Counted from the stretch's first letter, positions 10,352 through 30,700 are shown. The stretch: DNA of 64,000 nt from a virus (IMGVR_UViG_2799112330_000002:160001-224000), one strand, 5' to 3'. The notes: generated by a model not told the origin, from the sequence alone. Program-made: numbers and translations.

Positions 10352-10951
10352 ATGAGAGATGATAATATACAAGGATTTGGGTATGCTGAAATGTATGAAT
10401 GGTATGAAGTTCCAGAACAACAAAACAAATTGGGAAGATTTGTTACATTTGACAAAAGAGATCCCAATAAGATAAAGTTAGCTACTGGAGATGACTTTAT
10501 TATTGGAGTGACTACTGTTTGTGCTCAGGATACATCAGACAATCCAGATGAATGGAAATACTCTTATCTTTGTAATGAATACGGAGACTTATATCTTCAA
10601 AAAGAACGATTAGCAGTTGGCGCAAAACAATATGATCAACTATTAGAATTGAACTATATCAAGACTTATCCATGGGAACATTTCATTCGTATTGAGAACA
10701 AGTTCCTTGATAAGAATCGTAAATATGTTCAAAGAGCTAATCGTCAAGAATGGATACGAGTCAACCTTATTGGAAAGACAATTGTAAGAGACAATGGGGA
10801 ATGCAAGCCAGGAGAGTTCTGTGAAGCTTATACTGGAAAACTTAAAGAACTACAAGGAATAGCAGTCCCATCAACAAATACATCAAAGAACAAGAAATTC
10901 TATGTATTAGAGCGATTAAGTAATAATACTGTTCTTATTCTGAACAAATAA
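10352..10951 (+). CDS. stand-alone Peptidase_G2-like (intramolecular chaperone / autocleavage) domain protein
   Basis: GYAEMYEW, GRFVT, IIGV, RQEWIRVNLIGKTIVRDNGECKPG match the Peptidase_G2 pattern. Confidence 0.75.
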   Translation: MRDDNIQGFGYAEMYEWYEVPEQQNKLGRFVTFDKRDPNKIKLATGDDFIIGVTTVCAQDTSDNPDEWKYSYLCNEYGDLYLQKERLAVGAKQYDQLLELNYIKTYPWEHFIRIENKFLDKNRKYVQRANRQEWIRVNLIGKTIVRDNGECKPGEFCEAYTGKLKELQGIAVPSTNTSKNKKFYVLERLSNNTVLILNK

Positions 10952-11975: not shown

Positions 11976-12440
11976 ATGAAAATGACAACAAATGATATTG
12001 TATTAAGACATAATTTTGTAAGTCAAATACAATTCAAAGATGGTAATTCACAACTTAGTAAAGATCTAAAGATCAAACTTATGAGCATGCGTATTGAATA
12101 CGGAAAGGTACATAAGGAATTTGATAATGATGTTCAAGAATTTACAAAGGGAATTATTTCAGAACGATTTAATGAACTTCAAAGAAAACAAGATCGTACT
12201 GAAGAAGAAAACACAGAATTAAACAACTTGACAGCAGAATATAATGCTATGACAGTTGACTATATCAATAAGCTTGCCGCTGAAACTCATGAAGTAAAAG
12301 AATATGCATTTAATATTGATGAATATTCTGAGATTCTTGAGACTAATTCTTCAAATGATGTAGAAATTAATGGGCAGAAAATCAAAGCACCAGATTTCTT
12401 AGAGGCAATTTATGAGATATTTGTAACAAAAGAGGAGTAG
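11976..12440 (+). CDS. hypothetical helical protein
   Basis: 154-aa ORF ending inside a terminator palindrome. Confidence 0.65.
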   Translation: MKMTTNDIVLRHNFVSQIQFKDGNSQLSKDLKIKLMSMRIEYGKVHKEFDNDVQEFTKGIISERFNELQRKQDRTEEENTELNNLTAEYNAMTVDYINKLAAETHEVKEYAFNIDEYSEILETNSSNDVEINGQKIKAPDFLEAIYEIFVTKEE

Positions 12441-12459
12441 TTAACTACTCCTCTTTTTT
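12428..12459. terminator. bidirectional intrinsic terminator (perfect 30-bp palindrome)
   Basis: AAAAGAGGAGTAGTTAACTACTCCTCTTTT between convergent genes. Confidence 0.85.
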
Positions 12460-12498
12460 ATTATATTTTATTATAATTATAAACTATAAGCTATAATT

Positions 12499-13341
12499 TT
12501 AACCACCGATTGTTACAGTAAAATATCCTTCTCCAATAATTAGATCTCCATCAGCATTAGAAAGTTTTGTATCTGCTAAAGTTATATTAGCAGGAGATAC
12601 GTCAACTAATAAAGTATCAGCAGAGCCTAATGTAGGTGTACCAGCAGGTGTTAATGTTCCAGTAAAAGTATATCTAGTTGTACCCGATATACTTCCACTA
12701 GTTCCAGATGTATATTCCACTAATATAGGACCACCTTGACCAGATGCTCTATATGTTATATATGTAGCAGGTGTATTATAATTAATAGCAGTAACATCCC
12801 CAAGAGGAGAATACTTGTTACTAAAAGTATTGTAATTTATTTTATGCATAGTTAAAATAATCCATTGATGATTTTCGGCATTAAAAAACGGTAAATATGG
12901 AAATACAACATAAATATATGTCATGTATCCTTCATTAAATGCAAATGTTGATCCATCAGGTTTAATATGATCAAAATTAACAAATGTATAAGGAATAAAT
13001 TCATATCCGTGTGTTGTCAATAAGTCTTGATATTGAGATACTGCTTCTGATCTAGATGTTGCAGTTATGATCCAACCCCATTGAACTCCTATAGCCCATT
13101 TAAAATTATTAATTAAATAACCTTGATATCTATTTGTTGCATTAGTTGATCTTAGAAATTGAATTCCAATCTTACATACATATAAATTATTTATATTACA
13201 CCATTGAACTTGGTATGATCTGCTAAATCCTCTTCCACTTAATGTTATTGTTTCAATTGAATTATTTGCAGGTCTAGTAGACTTAGGTAATAATATTCCA
13301 CTTTCTCCATAATAAAAACTTAGTAAAGTTGCTGAAGACAT
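12499..13341 (-). CDS. C-terminal part of a tail-fibre-associated (adhesin-like) protein; in frame with 13467..14123 after a -1 shift at G7
   Basis: The frame stays open 46 codons upstream of the ATG, up to the G7 tract at 13478-13484; beta-rich Thr/Gly/Tyr composition. Confidence 0.7.
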   Translation of the reverse strand: MSSATLLSFYYGESGILLPKSTRPANNSIETITLSGRGFSRSYQVQWCNINNLYVCKIGIQFLRSTNATNRYQGYLINNFKWAIGVQWGWIITATSRSEAVSQYQDLLTTHGYEFIPYTFVNFDHIKPDGSTFAFNEGYMTYIYVVFPYLPFFNAENHQWIILTMHKINYNTFSNKYSPLGDVTAINYNTPATYITYRASGQGGPILVEYTSGTSGSISGTTRYTFTGTLTPAGTPTLGSADTLLVDVSPANITLADTKLSNADGDLIIGEGYFTVTIGG

Positions 13342-13466
13342 ATTTGATGATGCTGTTAACCAAGAAATATTTGATTGTGATCCACCAACACGTGTAGATG
13401 TTAAATCAACAGTATGTTGAAATATACAACTACCATTATGATAAACGGGGATTACTATATTATAAT

Positions 13467-14123
13467 TTAAATAACCGCCCCCCCGTAATTATAATACATT
13501 GTTGAATTACTATTATTAGATGTATAAGTCATCTTTATTATAGGTATATCTGTAGCAGAAGAGTTTGACATATTACCATGATACCGTAGAGTTATAGCTC
13601 CTCTATAATATGGACCTAATGAAAATTGTCCTTGTGAATAGAAGAGCCCATTCTTTGGATTCATTTCATAATAATCTGTACTATTTGTATTTAATGGCTC
13701 TCGATTAAATGGATATAAATACAAACCACCAGCCTCAAAAATATTACCAAACCTATCAGCTCCTGAACTAGAGTCATCAATTGATAATCCTCCTGTATTA
13801 TCTATATAGATATCAGCATCAATAAAACCTTGTGTCTGGAATGCGGTATCTCGCCAAGAATATAATTCTCCATCTTTTATTAATATATTCTTGCTACTAT
13901 CATAAAAATCACTAGTACTTAGTGGATCACCAGTATGATGGCAAACAAAAAAATGAACTTCATTTATTCCAGTAAAATCAGCTTCATTAGCTTCAAAATA
14001 TTTTCTTGGTATATATCTGTTAGAATCTGCAGAAACTTTAAATACTTTATTTGAAACTCCAGTATAATTTGTCATTATTCTACCAATATCACTACCGGTT
14101 AAATATTTATCTGTTATTGCCAT
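13467..14123 (-). CDS. N-terminal part of a tail-fibre-associated protein, ending just after a G7 tract
   Basis: Overlaps the tail fibre stop; ends TAC GGG GGG GCG GTT ATT TAA. Confidence 0.75.
   Translation of the reverse strand: MAITDKYLTGSDIGRIMTNYTGVSNKVFKVSADSNRYIPRKYFEANEADFTGINEVHFFVCHHTGDPLSTSDFYDSSKNILIKDGELYSWRDTAFQTQGFIDADIYIDNTGGLSIDDSSSGADRFGNIFEAGGLYLYPFNREPLNTNSTDYYEMNPKNGLFYSQGQFSLGPYYRGAITLRYHGNMSNSSATDIPIIKMTYTSNNSNSTMYYNYGGAVI
13478..13484 (-). repeat. G7 homopolymer at a frame junction (candidate contingency locus or frameshift site)
   Basis: CCCCCCC on the + strand; adding one G fuses the two ORFs into a 541-aa protein. Confidence 0.8.
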
Positions 14124-17100
14124 ATATTAATGTTTCTAAATAACTAATTTTCTTATCTTGTTCTTTTACCTTTTCAATTAATGCACCTACTAATTTAGAT
14201 AATGCTGAATTATAGTTAACTGAATATGTATAACTTTCATAACTATAGTCTACTGCTTCAGGTATAACATATGATAGTTCTTGAGCAATAAAACCTGTAG
14301 CATGCTTATTAGAAGAAATCCAGTCAAATTCTTTTACAATGTTAGAATAAGAACTAAATATATTATTTATGAATTCATCAGATATTGGTTTTATGTTTTT
14401 CTTCAATTTCTTATCTGATGCTGAATATACATCATTACCCTTAAAATATGGTGCACCAGCATAAATAGATAGAATTGTACCTGAACTTGAACCTTGACTT
14501 GTGCTACCTAATAAATAATATTGGGTACTTGATGAAGCCGTTATAATATATATTTGATCTGCTTCAGATGCCAGTCCATTAAAATAATTTGCAGTAATTG
14601 TACCTGTTGATGGATTTGCTTTAATACTAGAACAAAAACGAGTTTCATCAGTAATTGTTGCAGTTGCAGTTGTATACTTGAACAACATTGGATAATTATA
14701 GTTTCCTGTTGTTTGCCATTGTTTTACTTTAGGCGGGATCCAAGCAAATGTTCCAGCTGTATATGATAGCATATATGAACTATTTGCATCATTTTTGGCT
14801 GGTGCTGTTATAAAGCCTGTTGCACCTGCGCCTGTTTGATATAATAATTGATTCTTAGCACCTCCTGATATATTTGTAGCATTTGTAGCATTTGTTGCAT
14901 TTGTTGCATTAACTGCATTAGTAGCACTTGTAGCAGATGAAGCTAAAGCATCTAAAGTACAATTTAATGTTCCCGTTAAGTTAACTGTATTAGAACCAAT
15001 TGTAGTTGTTGTTGGTAATGCAGTAGCACCTGCAGAAGTAGATGAATATAGATTAAAATAATTATATCCATTACCACCCCATGAGCCTCCATCAATAAAC
15101 TTAAATGCTAATGAATTATATCGGCCGGTTAATTTTGCCCATACTTCAAATGTCACAGAATCAGATCCATTAAAGTATAATAGTTTAAAATTATCTAATG
15201 GTAATCCACTTGAAAGCGCATGGAATTTTATAGCAGACGCAGCATATTGATTAGAACTACTATTACATTGTACATATAATATTCCTGATATAGTTGATTG
15301 TCTTCCACATGATACATGTAATTTTATCCATCTATAATTAGTTCCTGTTAAGTTAATATCTGCAATCTTATAATAATCATCTGCAGCTGCAGTAGAATTA
15401 TATACTACTGAATATAATTTAGTCACTGTTGGCACTCCACTGGATAAATATATAGGCTGTACACTATTACCAACAGAAGCTGTTCCAAGTTTAGTTGCAG
15501 TTGTAGCAGTACCTAAGAATGATGGGGCTGTAATGCTTCCCTTAACCCATAGATTACCAGTATTAGAGCTTAACTCCATCATATTTGAGATAGCTGAACC
15601 AGCAGCATTAGCAGAGCTTTCCCATATCCATCCATAACCAGCAGCATTTTCTATAATACTTCTCATAGCCCATGATGTTACAACTGTTCCAGCTGGATGT
15701 GCCGCACCACCAGGAGACTTATCTTTATTAGACATATATTCAATCCATGTGTTATATGCTCTATTATAGAAATGTATACCATACGATGTTTTATGATATT
15801 GAGTATCTAAATATAATGCTCCTCTTATATAGCTATTGCCATTTACATCTAATGTTTCTGCTGGTACACGTATTCCTACACCAAGTTTTGGATTAATTGA
15901 AACTCCTTGTCCTGCATTTACTAAATCAATATATACTTCATCACCACCTCCAGAGGTATTATTACTAATACGCATATCTAATGATTCATTACCAGAAGTT
16001 GCCGCTGAACCTATTCTAAAATTAACAGAATCATTATATGCACGTGTTATTTGAATTGGCCATTGAGTAGCATTACCTCCAAATATTCCAGTATAAGCAT
16101 AGACATTCTTCCATTTTAATGTAGATGATCCAATATTATAAGTATTATTTATTGCTGGTGTAATAGAATTATAGTTATCAAATACAGTTTTCCATACTCC
16201 CCATGTTCCACTGCTTTGACCTCTTATTTGCATCATTCTACCAGATGCATTTGCAGATGTTGGTAAGAAAAGCTGAGCATCCCATCCAGCATTATTATCC
16301 CAGTTAAAATGTAATATATGACCATCAGACAATGGCTTATTAGAAGTTGTAGAACTAGTTACTTTAAATGATATTATACTTCCATCTCCTAATGTTGTCT
16401 TATTAATATCTGTTGTTGAGTATCGATCTTCATATAAACTTAGTTTTGTAGCATTGGTTGCATTAGCAGCATTATAATTAACAGCAGGATTTTCTTTTGT
16501 TATTTCTACGGTTCCACTTAATGTTGTTTCAAGACCAATTTCCCATCCATTATTCCATTTATCATAATCATCTCCACCATGTCCAACATGAATATCTTTT
16601 AGCCAAACTCTTACATAAGACCATGCAGTATTAGTTTCTCCAATCCAGACAATATTTCTTGTACCTCCACTATCATGACCAAATCTAACTGTTAAATTTC
16701 CATAATCATTCAAGTCATCTCTTAGTGAATATACACTAGTATTTTTCCATAGACCATCAGTATATACATATCCATTAATATGATATGTTGAAGATCTTGA
16801 GGTGACATAATTATATATTTCAACAGTAAACTTCATCATTGTTGCTTGTTTATATCCAGTAATTGGAAGTTTAATAGCAATTGCACCACTACCACTATTT
16901 GGTCCTTTAAAATAATGGGCATTTGGATAAACAACCGTATGATTATCTCCGACACTTAATGCATATGAAGTTCCTTCAACATGAGATGTACCAGTTACAT
17001 ATAGATTATATGATGGTGTTGTTCCTGTATCTATAGCAGTATTAACATAAAGTGATTGTTTTTTCATTTGTACTGTTGGTACTTCAATTGCAGAACTATA

Positions 17101-20100
17101 CCAGTTACTACTATCTGTTAAATCATTACCGCATTTAAATATGAAACTTGTAATAGCATTCTTATTAGCAAAAACCAATGCTTCATTACCATTAGTCATA
17201 TATTCAATTTTTGAATTATAGTTTGCATTACCGGGTCTGAAATTAATTGCTACTTTATTAGGTGTAAATGTCAATAGACCTTCATTTGTAGTTCCAAGAT
17301 TTGTGTAAGAAACACCAAGATAATTTGTATTAGTAATACCAACTACAGCAAGTGTTTTAGAACCCGGATTCCATGTAAAATAATCAAATGATTTATATAA
17401 TTGATTTGCTGTTGAAGTTGTTTGGGTTCTTGTATTTGCCCATACTATAGGATAATTAGTATTTGAAGTAATATTATGGTTTACTATAACATTAGTAGCA
17501 TTTGTAGCATTTAATGATGTTGTAACATCCTCACTAACAAATTGTGTTTCATCAGCAGGAATAGTAGTAAATATATAAGTATTATCTACAGTATTACTAC
17601 TACTTGTAAATAAATTCCAATTATCACTATGAGCTGCCCAAGAACCACTGTCTAATAATCGAATTCTTGCGTGATACCATTTTGCAGGAACTTTATAATA
17701 TAATTTACATATCAAACTATTTGCAGTAACTTTCGTTGTTAATATAAAATCGTCAGGAGTTAAATGTAAATCTTTTACAATCCATTTAGCATGTGTGGTA
17801 GAAGTGTTAATAGTACTAGCACCAGATTCAACTCTAGCTTGTACATATAATATTCCTCTAGCCCTTTCATAATAACCCGATACTAAAAATGTTGCAGTAA
17901 TATTTCTAGTACTTGTATTATTTTCTATTTTTGCTTCAGCCATTAAATGATATGGATTAGTAACACCAGCACCACCATCATATCCATTTCCGTAAATAAG
18001 ATATTTTGCAAATGTAGAAGTACCAGTTAAATCACCCTTGAATGTTCCATTTAATATTGTCTCATCCATCCAAAGTGATGGTATTTTCTCTATAGAATTA
18101 AGAGTCTTATAATATGTTAAATATGTTGCAGTACCTGTAGCTACTCCTGATTTTAATTCATACGTCATTTCTGTAGGTACACCGGCTGCTAGATATATTC
18201 CTTTAGTAGCAGATCCTTTATTAGCTGTTCCAAGTTTAGTTGCTGTATCGGCATTACCTTTTAATGCACCTTGGAAACAAGTAGCATATGCTGTAGCAGT
18301 TGCTGGATTAATTTTAACATTAGTATTATAATATGTAGTATCAGCCGTACCAGATGTTCCATTTGCGGTTTTTCTGACTAATATAGGCATTGCATAGTTA
18401 TATGTTGTTGATGTTTGTATTACTTTAGTGTCGGTATTAGAATCAGATGGCATTGTCATTGTTCTTGTACTCCAACTGGTTATATGACCATTTGCATCAT
18501 ATGTTATAGTTGGTATAGTAAATGTTCCGCCAAATGATAACGTCGCAGTAGCACTACCCGCAGCAGTACCGGCTGTTATATTATTAGTATGTCCAAATTT
18601 ATTTGATGCTAATGTTATTCCCTTTTCTGCCCCATAAGGAGATAATCCTGTTATATCGCTAGCAGTAACATTAGTACTTCCCATAATATGTCCTTGAGTA
18701 TCATATGATATTTTATAAAAACCAGATGCTTTTGTACCACTAAACAACGTGTTATGTGATATAGTAAGATCATTATTAGATGAAGATACAGTTATACTGG
18801 TGCCATTTTTTACATTCATTGCTCCGGTATCAGTTGCAGTTCCTTTCCATGCTGTGCCATTAACTGTAATATTACGCCATGTGTTATTATCTGTTGGTGT
18901 TATCCAAGTTGGGGCTTTATTTGGTCCTTCACTTTTTAGAATTTGGCCTACTGTACCGGATACTATAGGAGCATATGCAATTATTGTTGTACCACTTTTA
19001 GCTGCTCCATTTAATGTTACATTAGTACCTCCTGCATATGCTGTACATTGCGCAACTCTTCCATAAGGACTTAAATATATTGGAGTAAAAGCATTACCAA
19101 GAGCATTATTATTTCCTGCATGAACAGCATACATGTCTGCATTAAAACTTGGTAAATAGAATGTCTTATTATATCCAACATTATACTGAATTACATTTGT
19201 ATAGTTAGCTGTTGTACCATATAATCTTAATACACCTCGAGCATTATTAAAACCATTTTGTACAGGTGTATTATCATTAGATACATTTGCTGTTTCAACA
19301 TTTACAATATTATTTCCTAATTCTAATAATCCTTCTCCTACTGTTCCCTTCTTAGATGCTGTTGATGCAGTACCTAATACACTAATGGTCATTTTACCAT
19401 ATTGATTATTCTTTCCATAAACAACAAATCCACTTGTATTAACAGTTCCCATATTACTTAAAAACCATGAAGAAGTTTCAAAAGTATTAGGAGAAAATGT
19501 TGTTCCATCTATATAAAGTCTTGGTTTGATAGTTCTTGAAGCATATTCATAATCGTCATGATTAGTATTTGTTGCTCCTGTAATTGTAAGTCTACCTTTA
19601 TAGTTATTAATAATTCTTGCAGAAAAATCTAGACCAGTATATGCATAGTGAAAATCTATATATGGAGTATCATGAGATAATTCTATTGATCCAATATTGA
19701 TGAATGTTCCTTTTGCTGCACTATTTGTTGCTGTATAATTTGTGGCACCAACTAATAATGATGTTGTAAAAAATCCAGATTTAAATCTAAAATTAGTAAG
19801 TCCAATTGTATAAGCATCATTAGTTTGGGCAGTTATATTTTGAAATACACTTAATCCTTGTACTTGAAATTTTCCACTTTGAGCTGGAACCGCAGTACCA
19901 TTTATATTGATTGTTGATCCATTTGTAAATATACCTGTCCCAGGACTGATTGCATTAACCGCACTATAGAAAGCTATTCTATTTGCACTAGCACTATTAT
20001 TTATTGTAGAATTAATTATATAAGATATTTGAGTAGCTCGTCCATTTTCAGCTACATATATTGGTCTGTTTGTTGCTCCTATAATATTATTATTTGGACC

Positions 20101-22704
20101 ATGTATAGCATACATATCTCCATTAGCACTAAAATTAGGTAAATAAAAGTTTTTATCAGCAGTTGTTGCTTGAGAATATATATTTGTATAATGATTATTT
20201 GTACTATATAATCTTATATTACCTCTTGCATTATGTGCACCACCATCAGTTGTGTTTGTTCTATCAACAAATGATATATTATTTCCTAATTCAAGTGTTG
20301 CAATACCTATAGCTCCATTTGTGCCTGGAGTAACAATATTATTATCATCATCTAATACATTTACAGTTGTTTTTGTACCAAGTTGCTGAATATAAAACTT
20401 GGCATATTTTGAATTGTAGGAATACAAATGAAATCCGTATTGTCCTCCTAAGGCATTGGTGTTAAGACCTTGAGGAATATTTATTAATACTGAAGTAGCT
20501 CCTTCAATATGACTACTTGAATATAAGACATTATCAGAGACAAGTCTTGGGCGTATAGTTCTATTATTATATATAAGTGTTCCAATGGAATTTCCTGTAA
20601 CACCAGTAAATGTAATTCTTCCAGCAGAATCATTTATTAATCTTGCAGAATAATTACCTTTATTTACATTATTATATAGAAAATCAATATATGGAGTTAC
20701 ATATGATAGTTCAATTCTACCAGTTCCAATATATGTTCCCTGTACAGCACCATTTGTAGTAATTTCTCCAGTAGTAGCATTTCCAGTAACATTAAATCCG
20801 GTACTGCCAACTAATATTCCAGTACTATAATAAGAAAATGACCATCTATTAGCTGACGTTCCTAATGTATAAGCATCATTTACTGCAGGATATACATTTC
20901 CTTTTATACTCCAATGATTAGATATATTACTAATAAAAGCATCTCCATTATTAGAACCATTTTTTGTTATAAATAAATTACCATTATTATTTCCAATAAA
21001 CCAACTTGTTGTCGAAGTTCCAATATTGCCTATATTATCATTACCACATAAAAGTATTGTTGCCCAATTATTAATCATATGTAAACGGATTCCTTGATTA
21101 TAATTATTTGCTTGAGCTGTTGGAAATATATTTAATGAACCGTTATTTGTAAAATATGCTATTTTTTTAGCTCCAGTAGCAGTATAGAAATAAAATTGAT
21201 CTAAATCATCCGTACCTACAGACCAATTCTTATTATTATTTGATGAATAATTAATACATGCATAAGGTTTATTTGTATCTACAGACTTAATACCTAATAT
21301 ATCTCCATTACCATTTATTTGTAATTTTTTAATATTAGGATTCCATGTCAAATAACTATGCGTTTTATATAATTGATTACTTTGTGCATTATTAGTGTTT
21401 GCTTCATTAGACCACACTATTGGATAATTGGTATTTAATGAATAACTATTAGTTACAATAACATTGGTTACATTATCTGCTGTTCCTTTTAGCCAGCCTT
21501 GAAAATAAGTAGCATATGCTGTAGCAGTTGCTGGATTAACTGTAATACCTGAATTTCTACCAACATAATTAGCAGTATTATTTGGAGATTCTGAATATGT
21601 AAATAATAATTGATATGTTGATTTATTTCCTGTTCTTTCATATTGAATGACCTTTTCATCAGTATTGGCATCTGTAACTGTATCCCAAACAAATTTACTT
21701 CCATCATATTTAAGATATGTATTAGAAGATGGCGCATCAATAAATTTAGTTATATTAGGGGCTGATTGGTAAGCTATCTTATTTGCATCACCACCAGCTA
21801 TATTTGTAGCTTTACTTGCAGTAGTAGCAGTGTTTGCACTATTTGCACTATTTGCATGATTAGCACTATTAGCATTATTTGCATTAATAGCATAAGGTAC
21901 AGTTACATTAGAACTTTTTATTGTATAATTACCAATTTGAATATATGAATAAACACTATTGCCTGATATCCCAATATAAGATGTTTGTAATAAATTACTG
22001 GCATGAAATCCATCTAACTTATCAGCATTATCAGCATTAGTAGCATGATTAGCATTATTTGCATCAGTAGCATAAGGTACAGTTACATTAGAACTTTTTA
22101 TTCCTGCTCCATTACCAATTTTAACATATGAATAAATACTATTACCTGATACACCAATATAAGATGTTTGTAATAAATTACTGGCATGAAATCCATCTAA
22201 CTTATCAGCATTATCAGCATTAGTAGCATAATTAGCGCTATTTGCATTACCAGCATAAGGTACAGTTATATTAGAACTTTTTATTGTCTTATTACCAATT
22301 TGAATATATGAATAAACATTATTGCCTGACACACCAATATAAGATGTTTGTAATAAAGTATTGGCATGAAATCCATCTACTGTATCAGCATCAGTAGCAT
22401 AAGGTACAGTTATATTACTACTCCTTCCTGCCCCATTGCCAATTTGAACATATGAATAAATATTATTACCTGACACGCCAATATAAGATGTTTGTAATAA
22501 AGTATTGGCGTGAAATCCATCTAACTTATCCGCATTATCAGCATTAATAGCAAACAATGCTTGATTAGCAGTATTAGCACTATTGGCACTATTTACATTT
22601 AGTAAACTTTCTTTTTTATAACCTCCTCCTCCTAACAAAACATAGGAATTATTTGCACCTCCCGGTATACCACCATGATAAGAACCATCTTTGAATTTTC
22701 CCAT
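14107..22704 (-). CDS. long tail fibre protein with C-terminal Peptidase_S74 intramolecular chaperone
   Basis: 2865 aa rich in Asn/Thr/Gly/Ala; ADKLDGFHA and NATNA fibre repeats; ELSxxTPYIDF modules; C-terminal SDKKLKKNI...GFIAQEL...VNY plus coiled coil. Confidence 0.9.
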   Translation of the reverse strand: MGKFKDGSYHGGIPGGANNSYVLLGGGGYKKESLLNVNSANSANTANQALFAINADNADKLDGFHANTLLQTSYIGVSGNNIYSYVQIGNGAGRSSNITVPYATDADTVDGFHANTLLQTSYIGVSGNNVYSYIQIGNKTIKSSNITVPYAGNANSANYATNADNADKLDGFHASNLLQTSYIGVSGNSIYSYVKIGNGAGIKSSNVTVPYATDANNANHATNADNADKLDGFHASNLLQTSYIGISGNSVYSYIQIGNYTIKSSNVTVPYAINANNANSANHANSANSANTATTASKATNIAGGDANKIAYQSAPNITKFIDAPSSNTYLKYDGSKFVWDTVTDANTDEKVIQYERTGNKSTYQLLFTYSESPNNTANYVGRNSGITVNPATATAYATYFQGWLKGTADNVTNVIVTNSYSLNTNYPIVWSNEANTNNAQSNQLYKTHSYLTWNPNIKKLQINGNGDILGIKSVDTNKPYACINYSSNNNKNWSVGTDDLDQFYFYTATGAKKIAYFTNNGSLNIFPTAQANNYNQGIRLHMINNWATILLCGNDNIGNIGTSTTSWFIGNNNGNLFITKNGSNNGDAFISNISNHWSIKGNVYPAVNDAYTLGTSANRWSFSYYSTGILVGSTGFNVTGNATTGEITTNGAVQGTYIGTGRIELSYVTPYIDFLYNNVNKGNYSARLINDSAGRITFTGVTGNSIGTLIYNNRTIRPRLVSDNVLYSSSHIEGATSVLINIPQGLNTNALGGQYGFHLYSYNSKYAKFYIQQLGTKTTVNVLDDDNNIVTPGTNGAIGIATLELGNNISFVDRTNTTDGGAHNARGNIRLYSTNNHYTNIYSQATTADKNFYLPNFSANGDMYAIHGPNNNIIGATNRPIYVAENGRATQISYIINSTINNSASANRIAFYSAVNAISPGTGIFTNGSTININGTAVPAQSGKFQVQGLSVFQNITAQTNDAYTIGLTNFRFKSGFFTTSLLVGATNYTATNSAAKGTFINIGSIELSHDTPYIDFHYAYTGLDFSARIINNYKGRLTITGATNTNHDDYEYASRTIKPRLYIDGTTFSPNTFETSSWFLSNMGTVNTSGFVVYGKNNQYGKMTISVLGTASTASKKGTVGEGLLELGNNIVNVETANVSNDNTPVQNGFNNARGVLRLYGTTANYTNVIQYNVGYNKTFYLPSFNADMYAVHAGNNNALGNAFTPIYLSPYGRVAQCTAYAGGTNVTLNGAAKSGTTIIAYAPIVSGTVGQILKSEGPNKAPTWITPTDNNTWRNITVNGTAWKGTATDTGAMNVKNGTSITVSSSNNDLTISHNTLFSGTKASGFYKISYDTQGHIMGSTNVTASDITGLSPYGAEKGITLASNKFGHTNNITAGTAAGSATATLSFGGTFTIPTITYDANGHITSWSTRTMTMPSDSNTDTKVIQTSTTYNYAMPILVRKTANGTSGTADTTYYNTNVKINPATATAYATCFQGALKGNADTATKLGTANKGSATKGIYLAAGVPTEMTYELKSGVATGTATYLTYYKTLNSIEKIPSLWMDETILNGTFKGDLTGTSTFAKYLIYGNGYDGGAGVTNPYHLMAEAKIENNTSTRNITATFLVSGYYERARGILYVQARVESGASTINTSTTHAKWIVKDLHLTPDDFILTTKVTANSLICKLYYKVPAKWYHARIRLLDSGSWAAHSDNWNLFTSSSNTVDNTYIFTTIPADETQFVSEDVTTSLNATNATNVIVNHNITSNTNYPIVWANTRTQTTSTANQLYKSFDYFTWNPGSKTLAVVGITNTNYLGVSYTNLGTTNEGLLTFTPNKVAINFRPGNANYNSKIEYMTNGNEALVFANKNAITSFIFKCGNDLTDSSNWYSSAIEVPTVQMKKQSLYVNTAIDTGTTPSYNLYVTGTSHVEGTSYALSVGDNHTVVYPNAHYFKGPNSGSGAIAIKLPITGYKQATMMKFTVEIYNYVTSRSSTYHINGYVYTDGLWKNTSVYSLRDDLNDYGNLTVRFGHDSGGTRNIVWIGETNTAWSYVRVWLKDIHVGHGGDDYDKWNNGWEIGLETTLSGTVEITKENPAVNYNAANATNATKLSLYEDRYSTTDINKTTLGDGSIISFKVTSSTTSNKPLSDGHILHFNWDNNAGWDAQLFLPTSANASGRMMQIRGQSSGTWGVWKTVFDNYNSITPAINNTYNIGSSTLKWKNVYAYTGIFGGNATQWPIQITRAYNDSVNFRIGSAATSGNESLDMRISNNTSGGGDEVYIDLVNAGQGVSINPKLGVGIRVPAETLDVNGNSYIRGALYLDTQYHKTSYGIHFYNRAYNTWIEYMSNKDKSPGGAAHPAGTVVTSWAMRSIIENAAGYGWIWESSANAAGSAISNMMELSSNTGNLWVKGSITAPSFLGTATTATKLGTASVGNSVQPIYLSSGVPTVTKLYSVVYNSTAAADDYYKIADINLTGTNYRWIKLHVSCGRQSTISGILYVQCNSSSNQYAASAIKFHALSSGLPLDNFKLLYFNGSDSVTFEVWAKLTGRYNSLAFKFIDGGSWGGNGYNYFNLYSSTSAGATALPTTTTIGSNTVNLTGTLNCTLDALASSATSATNAVNATNATNATNATNISGGAKNQLLYQTGAGATGFITAPAKNDANSSYMLSYTAGTFAWIPPKVKQWQTTGNYNYPMLFKYTTATATITDETRFCSSIKANPSTGTITANYFNGLASEADQIYIITASSSTQYYLLGSTSQGSSSGTILSIYAGAPYFKGNDVYSASDKKLKKNIKPISDEFINNIFSSYSNIVKEFDWISSNKHATGFIAQELSYVIPEAVDYSYESYTYSVNYNSALSKLVGALIEKVKEQDKKISYLETLIYGNNR
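21890..22545 (-). repeat. four ~50-60 aa coding repeats in the tail fibre N-terminus
   Basis: AD(K/T)(L/V)DGFHAxxLLQTSYIGxSGNxxYSYxxIGN..SSNxTVPYA x4, nearly identical at the DNA level. Confidence 0.9.
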
Positions 22705-22737
22705 ATATTAAATGTAAAAATAATAAAATTATATATA

Positions 22738-22748
22738 ATTAAAAATAA
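22738..22748 (-). promoter_or_regulatory. putative late promoter motif TTATTTTTAAT (one of about 10 copies)
   Basis: Same motif about 25-60 nt upstream of structural genes at 6287(+), 33081(-), 39892(-), 43104(-), 55609(-), 62760(-); near-copies at 2283(-), 2297(+), 49707(+), 58697(-). Confidence 0.7.
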
Positions 22749-22823
22749 AATTCAGTTTTCTATTTAACTATATTTATATATAAAGATAAATAAAGATAAA
22801 TATATTTTAATAGATATTAACGT

Positions 22824-24061: not shown

Positions 24062-24097
24062 ACAGAAAAGAAGAAGCTAGTCTTCTTCTTTTTCTGT
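24062..24097. terminator. bidirectional terminator
   Basis: ACAGAAAAGAAGAAG-CTAGT-CTTCTTCTTTTTCTGT between convergent genes. Confidence 0.7.
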
Positions 24098-24703
24098 GTC
24101 TATAAATACAAAATCTAGATTTGAATATTTTATTTCTACTTTGAATGTTTGTGATTGTGCTAATGGAACATTATAGTTAAGATCTAGCATATCTATACCA
24201 TTTATTACAGGATCATATACAATTATTTTTGAGTATATTTCTCCAATATTGTTGAATATATTTATAGATATCTGATCAGGCATTTCTTTATATTCTGTAT
24301 CTCTTGAATATTGATAGAAGAAGTTTTCAAACATCAAGAAATAGTTCACATACCCAAGTGTATGCCTGAATATGATGTTCAATGTCTTGTCAATTAAAGC
24401 TATAGGGTTCTTTTCTGCTCTATATGTGTATTCTGAAGATGTATGCATGAATTGATTTGGCTTCTTTCTCCATTCTTTTCTAATAGGCTCTCCAGTACCA
24501 GTCTGTTGCTGTTGTACTGTTCCTTCATTAAACCCTAATATTTGCACTGATTGAATGGTCTCATTAAGAAAATCAATAGGTCTATATAGATAACTTTTGT
24601 TCTTACTAATGATCTTACTATACTTTTCATTCAATTCTGGTGCTATGAAATTATCTGGTAACTTCAATTCAAAAAGATCTTGTCTTCCGGGTAATGTAAA
24701 CAT
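24077..24703 (-). CDS. tail tube / tube-initiator-like protein (gp19/gp54-like)
   Basis: Directly downstream of the tape measure; TIQSVQILG...LNIIFRH...LDLNY...FKVEIKY tube-like beta pattern. Confidence 0.5.
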   Translation of the reverse strand: MFTLPGRQDLFELKLPDNFIAPELNEKYSKIISKNKSYLYRPIDFLNETIQSVQILGFNEGTVQQQQTGTGEPIRKEWRKKPNQFMHTSSEYTYRAEKNPIALIDKTLNIIFRHTLGYVNYFLMFENFFYQYSRDTEYKEMPDQISINIFNNIGEIYSKIIVYDPVINGIDMLDLNYNVPLAQSQTFKVEIKYSNLDFVFIDTEKEED

Positions 24704-24735
24704 ATTTTATTATATTATCTTCTTATATTTATATT

Positions 24736-27700
24736 TTAGTGTTTGCCCTGGCCATTTGCTTTATTTTTAATATTGTACTTATTTGCATCTTGTGCTTGTT
24801 TCGCGCTATCAGGGGTTGTTCCACCTTGTCCGTTTGGGTTATTTGGAGGAACTACCTTAATTGGATTACCTGGTGTGCTTCCTCCTGTATCTCCTCCTTC
24901 ATCTCCATTATCAGGGTTTGGTGTATCATCAGGTGCTTGTGATTTGACCACAATATTCAATGGTTGCTGTATAAGTGTTTGAACATTCTTGATAGCTTCT
25001 GTAATCTTGCTATGACGACGGATTTGGATTTCATCTGCCTTATTAATTGTTTCTTTAGATTCTTCAAGTCTATTTGCAAGTTCATTCAATACATAACTTA
25101 ATCTATTAGCTAATGCATCTGTCAAATTATCTAAGTTACCCATCTTCTTAGCAAGTTCATTCAATTCTCTTACTAATTGAGTTAAAGCATTTGTTCTTCG
25201 AAGATCTATACTATTTATAGTCTTTACATATTTTGCTAATAGATCAGTATTTGCTTTGAATGTATTAGTGCTCTTTTGACTAGACATTGAACTGTATATT
25301 TGTTCAATTGATATTCTCAATGTAGATGCATTCATCAATGCCATTGGATTGAATCTAATTACAGTATCAATATATTTTCCTAATGATTCACTAACAATAT
25401 CTAGATTTGTCTTGCCCCATGATGTCTCTATATCTATGTCAAATACCTTTGCTAAATTTGTTAAGTTTTGTTGTAATGCAGATATAATGGTTGGTTCTAT
25501 TTTCTTAGAATTTTCCATTGTTACCACTATTTGGTCAATTGCTGCTTTAAAATTATTTATAGAGTCAATTGTATTTTTATTGACCGATAACTTAATACCA
25601 GTCAACAATGTATTTAATGTAGCATTAACAGTATTAATATCTATCAATACATTCTTTAATAATGAATTATCTGCCTCCCATGTTCTAAATAATGTCAATA
25701 TTGGATCATAGAATTTTTCTAATATGTCAGTTATGATATTGGTTCCCTTTTTATTATCTTTAATGTAATTAATCTTTGCCAAATCAATCTTCCCAGTATA
25801 AGAATCAATTATTTCTGCAGATATATCAATTATTTCTTGTACAGTATCAGCAACATCTTGTAAAGAATTGACTATTATTTGATTGCTTTCTTCATTTTGC
25901 TTACGAACATTTTCATTATATAGTTGTTTAATTGTTTGATCTGCTGATTGTCCAGATATAAGATCTTGTAGTTTTACAAATGAAATGAAAATATCATGTA
26001 TATCAGCAAATAGTCCTATTGTAGATTCAATATTTGCTTTTGATTGTTGTTTATATTTGAATAACTGAGATATAACATCTGTATTTTCAAGTATTGGTTT
26101 GAAACTATTGATGACTGACTTTATTGTTGTTGTTATTTCAGTAATTGCTGACTGTATTTGAGCAGATGTATTTATAAGATTCTTTAATGTGACATCATCA
26201 ATTGCTATTGCCTTTTCATTCTTTGCGGTATCTTCATCAAATATTGTCAATAGACTTGATATTATGTGTCTTGCTTTTGATTTTGCTTGTGTTATTTGAT
26301 CTTCTTTAAATGAAATATATCCTTTAGCATTTCCATCTTTGTCATAGCCATTAGCAATCTTCATTTCTGCTATTTCTTTTAATGTGTTTGCAGATTTTTT
26401 GATGATTTTGTTGATTGAATCATTTACATGAAGTATGCCTGGTAATTTTTGATCAATTTGTTGCTTTTGTAAAGTATCGTATGATGATATTAAGCTTTTT
26501 CCTATAGAAGTTATCATATCAGGAATTGTTTTCTTAATATTGTCAATAACAGTTTTGATATTTATCTTTTCATATTCTATGACTTGGCCCTGATCATTTA
26601 TTTTCTTAGGTATTTGGGCTGTTCCAATCTTTACAACAGAATCAACAATATTTGCAACTATTTTAGTAATACCAGATATTGAAGAAACAGCTTGACCAAA
26701 TAATGAGTCTTTACCTTCTTTGAACAAATGCGGGTTCTTTTCTACAACACCTATTAATGTAGTTGATACTGAAGTAACTATTTGTTTTATTGTTGTTGAT
26801 AAAGCTGTTTGTATTTCAGTCATATTAAGTTTTTCCCATTTATCTGGTTGACCAGTCTTAGGATCATAATGAGATGGAACTAATGCATTAGCAATCTTTA
26901 CAATTGCATCGGTAGTATTACTTACAATCTTAGATATACCACTAACAGAATCAACAACTTCCTTAAGATTACCTGTTGGTTGATTATCAGCAGTAAATAA
27001 GAATTGCTTATATGGATTTTTACTAAATGTATCTACTAATGCTTTTCCGATACCAATTGCAATTGCAGCAACATTAATAGCAGCATTTTTGTAATCATCC
27101 TCTTTCATTTCTCTGAATTCAATTGGCTTACCTGTCTTAGGATCCCATTTATAAGGTATTTGATTATTTGCTAACTTTATTATTCCATCAGCCATTCCTG
27201 AAACAAGTTCATTAACTGGCATAATAGATTCTAATACAGTCTTCATTGTACCATCAGTAAATCTTTCATCACCAGCATATTTTACTAATGAATCTAATAT
27301 GCTTGTAATGATAGAACCAATAGCTTCTCCTGATGCTCTAAAATCTTCCGGTGTTACATCAACATAACTAATTGGATGTCCTTTATCATCCCAATCATTA
27401 GGAACTTGTAGTTTTGCTATATCTTTTATTCCCTTACCGACATTTGCTATTAGTTCAGATACTTTGAATGATGTTTCTACAACTGTTCCTATTTTTGAAT
27501 TTTTCTTTCCTATTCCAAATACACCATCATTACCATCAAATAATGAGCCTACTGTTATGCCATCTTCTCCATCAATTGGTTTATAATATAGGTTAGCTAA
27601 TGAAGAAATAACTGCAGTCAATATATTTCCTACGCTTTTGCCCATATCATTAAAATCATTACTATTTAATGTTTTATATTCAGTTGGGTGTCCCTTATCA

Positions 27701-30700
27701 TCCCAATCTATAGGAATTTGTAGTTTTGCAATATCTTTGATGCCTTGTCCAACATTTCCAATTAATTCAGAAATTCTAAATGACAAATCAATAACTTGAG
27801 ATATCTTTGATTTTGTAGCACCTAATCCAAATAATCCATTAGAATCTCCAGCAAGTAAATTATCCCATTCTGCTTTTGATATACCTGAATTATTATCATT
27901 CAAAAATTCACCACTGGCAATCTTTCCTAATGTAGTAAACATTGTTGTGAGTACTGTTGTAATGTTTGTTCCTGCATCAGTAAAATCTTTTTTCCTTAAT
28001 TGTCTAAATGATATTGGTTTTCCTTGATCATTCCATTCAATAGGTATTTGTAGTTGAGCAATATTTCCAACAGCTTCACCAACAGAACTTATTACTTTAC
28101 TAACCTTCATTGACAAATTCATTATTCTAGATAATGGATCTTCACCAATCAATCCTAATACAAATGAATTTGCAAAACTAAATCCAGAACCTTCTAATTC
28201 AGTATAAACCTTATTAAGTTCTTTAACCATTGTTGTCAATATTGTTCCAACATGCTGACCAGCTAAATCAAAATCAGTTTCTCGTAATTGTCTATATCTA
28301 ACAATATTTCCTTTTTCATCCCATTCAGCTGGGATTTGAAGTTTTGCTATTTCATAAATTGATTTTCCAACTGTTCCTGTGATATATGCTATCTTTCTTG
28401 ATATTGACATTAAGTAAAGAAGTTTCATTTCCATCTTACCTGCACCAACAACTTTACCAATTGCTTTTCCAATCCAATTATTACCAACAGCATTAGCAAT
28501 TTCGCTATCTGATGGCATTGAGACTTTATTTGGAATATTCATGAAGTTTTCAATATTTGAAGATATTGTATCTATTCCAGATTTTAGATCAATGTTTTGT
28601 ATTGACTTAACTGCTTCTGCCATCATTGAGACAGTATCTGTTATTCCTCTTATAGTTCTTCTAATAGGTATTACACTAAATGCGGTTGCTACAGCAATAG
28701 GAGCAATTTTAGATATTCCTTCAAACAATTTGAGCATTGAACCAGCCTTAGGATCTTTATTTGTAACAGTCAAAGACAATTTATTGATACTATCTGTTAT
28801 AGTATTTCCATGTTTCTTCATGATGTCATTAACATAAGCAATAGAACTACCATAGATGAACAGTATTTCACCCATAGCTATTAATGTAGCTCCACCTGCC
28901 GCAACTGGAATACCGATTAATGGATTTGCTACAAGTGAACCAATTGCCCAGAAGAATGCCCCATAAGCTCCAACAGAAGCAACAAATAAAGCCATGTTAG
29001 CAAAAAATTCTCCAAAACTTATTTCATTGAAAAGACTATTTAGATAGAATAATGAACTGCCATATATTGCAAGAGTGAGACTCATAAGAATAAGTATACC
29101 ATTAGCAAGTAGCATATCTGTTTTGTCTATGCCTTTAGCTGCTAATGACATTAATTTAAGTGTACCAACCATTATAAGTTCCATAAGGCCAACCTTAGCA
29201 ACCGTATCAAATCCTATTTTCATTTGATCAATCAACCAAACTACTCCGCTAAATACTCCTAATGATAGACTTATTTCGCCAATTATTATTGATGCTTCTC
29301 TAACTTCCTTTTCTTTTAATGATATCTTAGATTTTCCTGTTAACAACTCATAGAATTTACCTAAAGCAAACATTAATGCTGTCATGACTGCAACTTTTAC
29401 AAGAACCAATGCTTCTGTAGGATCCTCAAATGGGAACATCTCATCAATAGCTTTTACAACACCAGCAAATATAAGTAATGATCCAGATATGAGAGCTAAT
29501 GTTTTTGCTCCTTCTTGTACATCCTTCTGGTGTTCATCAAGTGTCTTCATTATAGCTATTATTGACCATGTAAATCCTGCTAATAAAGCAGCATAGCCAC
29601 CAACAACTAATGGTCCATATTGACTCATAAATGTCGCACCACTTAAGATGATGAAATGCATAGCACCAACAAATAGCATGAATCCCATAAGTCCTGATCC
29701 CTTGGTTGCTGAAGTAAGAGATCCCGCTATGCCACCTTTACTTATTCCCATTACAGATAAAGTCTTGATTGCCTGAATAGCAGCAATTGGAATTAGCATC
29801 ATATCAACAAAGGCAGTAATAAGACCAGCATAAAGAATTGCAGATCCCCAGGCATTAGCAGTCTTCATATATGCTGTACCTGTCAATAGAATACCATGCA
29901 TTACTGCAACAAACAAGGAGAATGGTTTAAGACTATCTAAAGCCCTTTTATCAAAACCATCTGTTATTCTTTTAGAAGCTAATCCCATACCAGCAATAAA
30001 TCCATCAAATACTGCCGCGTATTCAGCACCAGCTAGTACTCCGTATTTCTTTGTAAACAATATACCTGTTGTCAATATACCATGCATTGTTGCTAAGAAT
30101 ATTGAGAACGGTTTGAGACTATCTAATGTTTTCTTGTTAAATAATTCAATAATTGTTTCGGATACTTTACCCATGTATTTAATGAATCCTAACAATACAG
30201 TAGCATATTCAATAGCAGCCAATGCTCCAAATTTCTTTATGAATGTTGCCCCCATTACTAAGCATCCTGTACAAACAGCAAGGAATAGACTAAATTGCTC
30301 CATTTGAGCTGCAGTAGAAGATTTAAGTAATGAATTGATTGGCTTTGTTGCAGCAATAACACCAACAATAAATAATGCTAATAGTTTTGTATAGTCTAAA
30401 GCATATTTTGCCATCATGCCGTTCTTCATTGACATAAACAATGACCCTACTAATAGGCATGTTGTAGTGGTGAACATAAATAATGCAAATGTCTTTAATG
30501 ATGCTAATGCCGTTCCCTTTACAAGATTAAACAATAAGAATGGAGCAATTACACCAGCTTCAAATAGCATCAATAATCCTGTAAATTCTAATGCCGCTTT
30601 AACATATTTGCCTCCCTTCAATTCCATGAACAAAGCACCAACTAGTAAAATGATTGTACAAGATACAATTACAGAATTAAATGCTTTAAGACCACTGAAT

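Follow-up and report, generated by a model that had tools for sequence, protein, structure and literature searches.

A frame break at a G7 homopolymer in the last gene of a jumbo-phage tail-fibre operon: a candidate low-rate frameshift switch

The tail-fibre operon and its interrupted last gene

The DNA under study, referred to below as the window, is a stretch of 64,000 nucleotides that corresponds to G000:C82:160001-224000. The contig from which it is taken, C82, has 410,106 bp and 29% GC and was placed in a 1.9-Mb bin (26% GC, 7% contamination). It belongs to a jumbo phage of the myovirus type, with a baseplate wedge protein (phrog_219, E 2e-21) and a head-tail adaptor. The closest relatives of the wedge protein (24-29% identity) are found in Sphingomonas phage PAU, in Tenacibaculum and Prevotella phages and in uncultured phages of 460-640 kb. 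A Shine-Dalgarno-like (SD-like) motif precedes only about 3% of the 381 genes, the leaders have 13% GC, and a T stands at position -1 in 71% of the gene starts. This initiation style is Bacteroidota-like, and the phages that carry the related wedge proteins infect mostly Bacteroidota. Because of these starts, the wedge relatives and the 7% contamination, the co-binned small genome of 26% GC may not be that of the host. Both ends of the contig (G000:C82:1-200 and 409907-410106) look tRNA-like by eye and no terminal overlap was found; C82 is probably not a closed genome, and a version of 410,268 bp is listed in the protein collection.

The operon of interest is read from the minus strand and starts with a gene for a 2865-aa protein (14107..22704), whose reading as a tail fibre is supported by a Peptidase_S74 intramolecular chaperone domain (PF13884, E 7.9e-7) at C-terminal residues 2763-2818. 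Its C-terminus shares 41% identity with the end of the fibre in a related phage locus, L018. The operon ends with the gene that is the subject of this report (12499..14123, minus strand), whose ATG at 14123 overlaps the stop codon of the fibre gene (14107) by 17 nt. An overlap with the end of the fibre gene, in the position of the T-even gene for gp38, had been noted in the preliminary description of the locus, and this placement holds. Downstream lies a two-way terminator hairpin (12428..12457) with a 13-bp stem flanked by A and T runs, which separates the last gene of the operon from a convergent gene of 154 aa (p154, 11976-12440).

Other genes of the neighbourhood deserve a brief mention. 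A free-standing Peptidase_G2 intramolecular-chaperone autoproteolytic domain of 199 aa (window 10352-10951, E 6.5e-18) is encoded beside a GT2 glycosyltransferase gene, without an attached fibre or spike body, and is kept in 15 of 15 relatives. Another giant gene, of 2765 aa and without a family match, precedes a gene of 208 aa (window 24077-33033). In the relative L005 a 208-aa ORF also follows a giant gene (L005:10341-15777), where the match is one of position only, and variants of the 208-aa protein with at least 90% identity occur in other contigs. The 208-aa gene proved unrelated to the last gene of the fibre operon.

The last gene is broken into two open reading frames (ORFs). The minus strand around the break reads ...AAT TAC GGG GGG GCG GTT ATT TAA, and the G7 homopolymer in it (13478..13484, C7 on the plus strand) is the site at which the frame is lost. 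The upstream ORF (P0001, 13467..14123, minus strand) encodes 218 aa and stops at 13469-13467; its final three residues, AVI, are an out-of-frame tail past the G run. In the -1 frame a TAA at 13491-13489 is followed by an uninterrupted stretch from 13488 to the stop at 12499-12501. This stretch consists of a bridge of 49 codons (13342..13488, minus strand; LRGGGYLNYN...TASSN) that leads into the ATG at 13341 and of the downstream ORF of 280 aa (P0002, 12499..13341, minus strand). The shift between the frames must fall within 22 nt (13467-13488), where the G run is the sole repetitive element. An allele with G8 would encode a single protein of 215 + 326 = 541 residues, i.e., the whole of 12499..14123 as one gene of 541 codons, whereas a G6 allele would reach a stop five codons later, and G7 and G6 both terminate within 3-6 codons of the tract. 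A change of one unit in the tract thus restores or destroys the long ORF, as is expected of a phase-variable gene.

This anatomy agrees with what had been described before. The 218-aa ORF that stops just past the G7 run, the -1 frame that opens at 13488 and runs into the ORF at 12499..13341, the junction of about 20 nt that holds the run, and the 541-aa protein from G8 were all found as claimed, with every coordinate right, the bridge being 49 codons long and the junction 22 nt. The run had been called the longest of G or C in the window; it is also the longest in the whole contig of 410,106 bp.

One gene or two, and the accuracy of the tract

Whether the two ORFs form a single gene was judged mainly from the bridge, which was scored by codon-usage log-odds trained on the 381 ORFs of the contig. 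In the -1 frame it scores 20.7 bits, where the two remaining frames get -77 and -62, and lies within the range of genic windows of 49 codons (mean 27.4, sd 8.9). Such a score or a higher one is reached by 0.02% of off-frame windows and by 3% of intergenic windows, and 7.5% of intergenic windows of this size are free of stops. No ATG, GTG or TTG start is present in the bridge upstream of 13341. The two candidate starts were then compared by a start-context matrix over positions -25 to +6, used in place of a Shine-Dalgarno signal. Annotated starts have a mean of +4.2 (sd 3.9) by this measure, and the ATG at 14123, with +5.0, resembles a true start (0.2% of internal ATGs get that high). The ATG at 13341, with -5.9, resembles internal ATGs (mean -5.1) and would fall among the lowest 2.4% of annotated starts, and the 25 nt upstream of it have 32% GC, compared with a mean of 13%. 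A genome-wide scan for open frames that overlap and are linked by a bridge of coding character returned the site at 13478-13484 as the sole match in 410 kb. Past the break, the downstream 329 codons hold no stop and no second frameshift in a genome of 29% GC and have full coding statistics, and the codon usage of the split gene (0.62 bits per codon) equals the average of the phage.

The alternative, that proteins of 218 aa and 280 aa are made from their own starts by two genuine genes and that the open bridge is a coincidence, agrees with the gene callers, which list two proteins, and with the gap of 125 nt between the ORFs, which is ordinary in this phage. The missing SD motif before 13341 was rejected as proof against a start there, as about 3% of the genes of this phage have any such motif; in a phage that does not use Shine-Dalgarno signals its absence is uninformative. 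Against two genes stand the coding character of the bridge in precisely the downstream frame, which few intergenic windows match in score or in freedom from stops, and the poor context and GC-rich leader of the ATG at 13341, and the arrangement is in our judgement improbable. Owing to the coding-like bridge, the lack of a start in it, the internal type of the ATG at 13341 and the uniqueness of the break, the two ORFs are best read as one gene of 541 codons interrupted at the G run. The earlier claim that a single gene is split by G7 is favoured by the same evidence, and the two ORFs should be recorded in annotation as one frameshifted gene.

A break at a homopolymer may also be made by the assembly, i.e., the true tract could be G8, the gene intact and the homopolymer miscounted. 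That the break coincides exactly with the longest G/C run is what such an error would produce, but a second gene broken at a homopolymer is not found anywhere in the 410 kb. A/T runs of 5 or more number over 2,100 in the contig, including 127 of 7 or more, and a single coding-like frame break among so many runs argues that homopolymers were assembled accurately; the break does not belong to a general background of assembly errors. The recorded copies point in the same direction. The exact 218-aa product, including its AVI tail, is found in 7 contigs and the exact 280-aa product in 5 (NCBI, Logan and ENA protein records). Neighbouring genes of the strain occur in 4-13 contigs, so that the G7 allele is shared by essentially all assemblies of the strain on record. 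Variants of neighbouring genes with at least 90% identity lie on contigs of 136 kb and 80 kb. A G8 tract would have been called as a 541-aa protein, and G6 or G9 would have given a protein of 219-220 aa in the same 90% cluster; among 15 billion proteins there was no fused 541-aa product and no product of the G6 or G9 type, and both product clusters have a single member. A truncated product in 7 contigs from three sources, presumably from more than one assembly pipeline, with no fused product on record, makes a miscounted consensus hard to credit.

The same identity of all recorded copies that argues against an assembly error lends no support to frequent switching. At the level of protein records there is no difference in tract length among near-identical genomes, where tract lengths are deduced from consensus contigs that hide minority alleles and may share samples. 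The slipped-strand ON/OFF switching proposed in the preliminary description therefore meets a record without a single tract-length variant, with exact copies in 7 and 5 contigs.

The G7 tract, its relatives and its possible uses

Production of short and long proteins by ribosomal or transcriptional slippage had been suggested as well. In the zero frame the site reads C GGG GGG G; this is not a canonical X XXY YYZ heptamer, because the first tRNA would have to re-pair on CGG. A single P-site slip, in which the second GGG moves back by one base before GCG, re-pairs perfectly, and its product is the protein of the G8 allele. GCG is rare (145 of the 4997 alanine codons), and GGG makes up 5.7% of glycine codons. 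The pairing between the run and CCCCGT that had been pointed out does exist, as ACGGGGG/CCCCCGU with the partner 30 nt downstream, in the minimum-energy fold, but this fold is no better than those of shuffled sequences (z = -1.0). As a frameshift stimulator the hairpin was rejected, as it contains the slip site itself. Downstream of the run, no structure was detected at the spacing of 5-9 nt expected of a stimulatory hairpin or pseudoknot (z -0.9 versus shuffles), and no SD-like stimulator was seen upstream of it. The Rfam search returned no frameshift element, its sub-threshold matches falling only on the hairpin at 12428..12457. The known sites of transcriptional slippage in bacteria are for the most part A/T runs of about 9 or more, or combine an A/G motif with a hairpin formed upstream in the nascent RNA; the run studied here is a G7 that can pair only with a partner downstream of it, in a fold without significance. 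Low-level slippage is possible, but nothing marks the G7 as a programmed site, and the claimed slippage is left with a non-canonical slippery site and no stimulatory RNA structure.

A low-level slip could nevertheless be put to use. The G7 DNA would then be the working form of the gene, and a slip of the P-site Gly-tRNA or of the RNA polymerase would give a fixed ratio of the 218-aa and 541-aa proteins. The perfect P-site re-pairing, the rare codon that follows the slip, itself made on an uncommon glycine codon, and the identical G7 in all recorded copies, which fits a fixed functional state, are all consistent with this idea. Weighed against them, the departure from the X XXY YYZ pattern, the lack of a downstream stimulator at the usual spacing, the lack of an upstream one in a phage that hardly uses SD signals, and the preference of transcriptional slippage for long A/T runs make programmed recoding of either kind a poor prospect. 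A structure-independent -1 slip on a fixed G7 that sets the ratio of short and long forms of a strain-specific accessory fibre protein is, in our view, just as improbable; if true, a host-recognition gene of a jumbo phage would contain a recoding device without known counterpart.

The length of the run appears striking by raw counts. C runs in the 410,106-bp contig number 105 of 4, 4 of 5, none of 6 and 1 of 7, and G runs number 176 of 4, 10 of 5 and 1 of 6 (C82:38088-38093). In synonymous shuffles (within genes, or with codons redrawn from genome-wide usage), 0.76-0.92 G/C runs of 7 or more are expected per proteome, and at least one occurs in 55-60% of the trials, compared with the one observed. 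The rarity of the G7 was thus rejected as proof of selection, being an outlier by raw counts and not by codon shuffles. There is no over-representation of such tracts by the shuffles and no recurrence in 15 related loci. The G7 need not be selected; it may be the most mutable site of the genome, where a frameshift is expected. The tract alone is within chance; what gives it weight is that it falls on the one coding-like frame break of the 410-kb contig. As a separate observation, short G/C runs are avoided in the coding sequence of C82, with 13 runs of 5 or more where synonymous shuffles predict 30-33. Elsewhere in the bin a single G/C run of this length occurs, a C7 on a non-phage contig (G000:C37:57112-57118).

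Related phages were found in IMG/VR through the neighbouring GT2 glycosyltransferase gene (65-74% identity), which gave 15 loci. In the relatives that keep the gene order, the interval from the p154 homologue to the position of the dUTPase-like gene is occupied by one gene on the minus strand, which varies in length and ends 11-46 nt from the p154 stop: 1908 aa with an S74 domain in L018 (11476-17326), 979 aa in L005 (6266-9303), 767 aa in L007 (11403-13867) and a Tail Collar domain protein in L004 (11476-12561). The same slot in the window (12441-22823) holds the 2865-aa fibre and the orphan split gene. None of the 15 relatives has a gene after the fibre, and their loci show no similarity to either half of the split gene even at E = 10. 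The comparison of tract lengths that had been proposed for related genomes met 15 loci with neither the gene nor, in their 297 kb, any G/C run of 6 or more; hence the gene can be dispensed with, and tracts of this kind are no trait of the lineage. Judged by domain content (S74 here and in L018, Tail Collar in L004), the slot is a hypervariable and swap-prone receptor-binding cassette, to which the split gene is, going by these gene orders, a strain-specific and dispensable addition. The region from p154 to the dUTPase-like gene is worth recording as such a cassette, with sizes from 767 to 2865 aa and, in this strain only, the additional orphan gene.

Homology offers no lead to the function of the gene. 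Only the query itself or nothing was returned by a word-indexed search of 5.8 billion proteins (the C half against proteins near its lengths, the N half against near and longer ones), by an exhaustive phmmer search of the C half against 1.84 billion representatives, by blastn against GenBank phages, and by searches of IMG/VR, JGI metagenomes and GTDB genomes with peptide patterns and a DNA pattern that allowed any tract length. Neither half had a match in Pfam or PHROGs at E 0.1 or below, the ESM Atlas gave no usable match (Atlas models score 0.27-0.30), and there was no homologue in 400 genomes of the bin's order and no paralogue in the bin's own genome. AlphaFold2, run without an alignment, modelled the C part of 329 residues with a mean pLDDT of 32. 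In composition the protein is dominated by N, S, T, G and Y, and its predicted secondary structure is mainly beta-strand. Each half is an orphan, for which neither a family nor a homologue nor a usable fold was obtained. The gp38-type adhesin that had been proposed has no family match in Pfam or PHROGs and comes down to a matter of position, and this analogy is weakened by the chaperone domain that the fibre itself carries and by the lack of any gene at that place in the relatives.

The reading that we prefer, with a probability of roughly 0.45, is that one accessory gene of about 541 codons in the fibre operon is seen in a frameshifted OFF state, from which it would be restored at a low rate by replication slippage. 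The strain-specific gene at 12499-14123, last in the tail-fibre operon of a 410-kb myovirus-type jumbo phage, would lack one base in its glycine-coding G run (G7 instead of G8), both in the consensus and in every recorded copy. Translation from the ATG at 14123 would then end after 218 residues, and the remaining 326 codons would be read only in genomes or transcripts with an added G. The most likely route to the full length would be slippage from G7 to G8 during replication in a minority of phage genomes. In that case the locus would be one of the contingency type, with a frameshift that reverses at a low rate and that is seen here while OFF. Candidate phase-variable tracts are by accepted convention those with at least 7 G or C (PMC6321876), and the G7 within the reading frame reaches this cut-off at its lower limit. 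At this length, mutability is at the low end, possibly below 1e-5 (PMC6321876). We infer that the tract length varies in nature, that the protein serves in the virion, perhaps in receptor binding, and that an ON/OFF alternation would be adaptive; the switch itself is a proposal that the results have weakened somewhat.

The foremost competitor is plain decay, in which a dispensable gene was recently inactivated when its most mutable site lost one base. The gene would be a young pseudogene that does not switch, with the 218-aa stub as its sole product or with nothing useful made. The relatives L018, L005 and L007 do without the gene, the end of their fibre adjoining the p154 homologue, chance alone yields about 0.8 G/C runs of 7 or more per proteome, the broken allele is present in every recorded copy, and recoding signals are lacking, all of which would suit a lost gene. 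The downstream 329 codons, however, have gathered no stop and no second frameshift at 0.62 bits per codon, and the allele seems to persist in several assemblies, though these possibly derive from one sample. Decay is thus a possible but doubtful account, less probable than the low-rate restoration proposed above and more probable than two separate genes, a miscounted tract or programmed recoding. Mechanistically, decay and the low-rate frameshift differ only in the rate of restoration and its adaptive value. Should the tract switch, the locus would also show how a newly acquired accessory fibre gene can stay silent in reserve.

Comparison with known systems

The position of the gene invites comparison with gp38 of the T-even phages, an adhesin or chaperone encoded after gp37, the distal part of the long tail fibre. 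Like gp38, the split gene lies directly downstream of the fibre gene and overlaps its end; unlike gp38, it has no family match, its fibre carries an S74 chaperone of its own, and the closest relatives have no gene at that place. The -1 frameshift between G and GT of phage lambda is similar in that two overlapping frames in a cluster of tail genes are connected by a -1 shift at a G-rich run. The lambda site is located between the tail tube and tape measure genes, whereas the one described here follows the fibre, is not a canonical heptamer, lies in a gene without homologues in the collections searched and is not accompanied by a stimulator.

The poly-G tracts of Campylobacter Fletchervirus phages are reportedly longer, occur several per genome and vary within phage populations, in contrast to the single G7 found here, with no variation on record, tract-free relatives and an orphan gene. 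Poly-G switches in receptor-binding and other genes have been reported for these phages (PMC10877375, citing Sorensen et al. 2021, Cell Rep 35:109214). Their arrangement is similar to the present one, with a coding G homopolymer in the host-recognition region of a myovirus, where a change of one base moves the C-terminal part into or out of frame. Phase variation by simple sequence repeats in bacteria, as catalogued for Campylobacter with PhasomeIt (PMC6321876), shares the cut-off length, the location within the frame and a predictable ON length; there is, however, no sign of a phasome in the phage or in the bin, whose remaining 1.5 Mb hold one other run of 7. Indel variation is measurable at homopolymers of at least 6 in T-even and other phages, and loci in T2/T4/T6, ICP1 and others undergo reversible +/-1 frameshifts at about 1e-4 to 1e-3 in phage populations, mostly at A/T runs (Gomez, Barrick & Waters, bioRxiv 10.1101/2025.10.21.683753). 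Those loci were described from an intact consensus by read counts and reversion assays, whereas the present one has a frameshifted consensus and is known from its sequence; in common they have a short homopolymer in a phage gene, at which polymerase slippage could bring about a reversible +/-1 shift. If the tract switches, this uncultured 410-kb phage would be another virus that hedges its host recognition through a slippery homopolymer, a mechanism known from experiments only for Campylobacter phages and, in a broader sense, for T-even phages.
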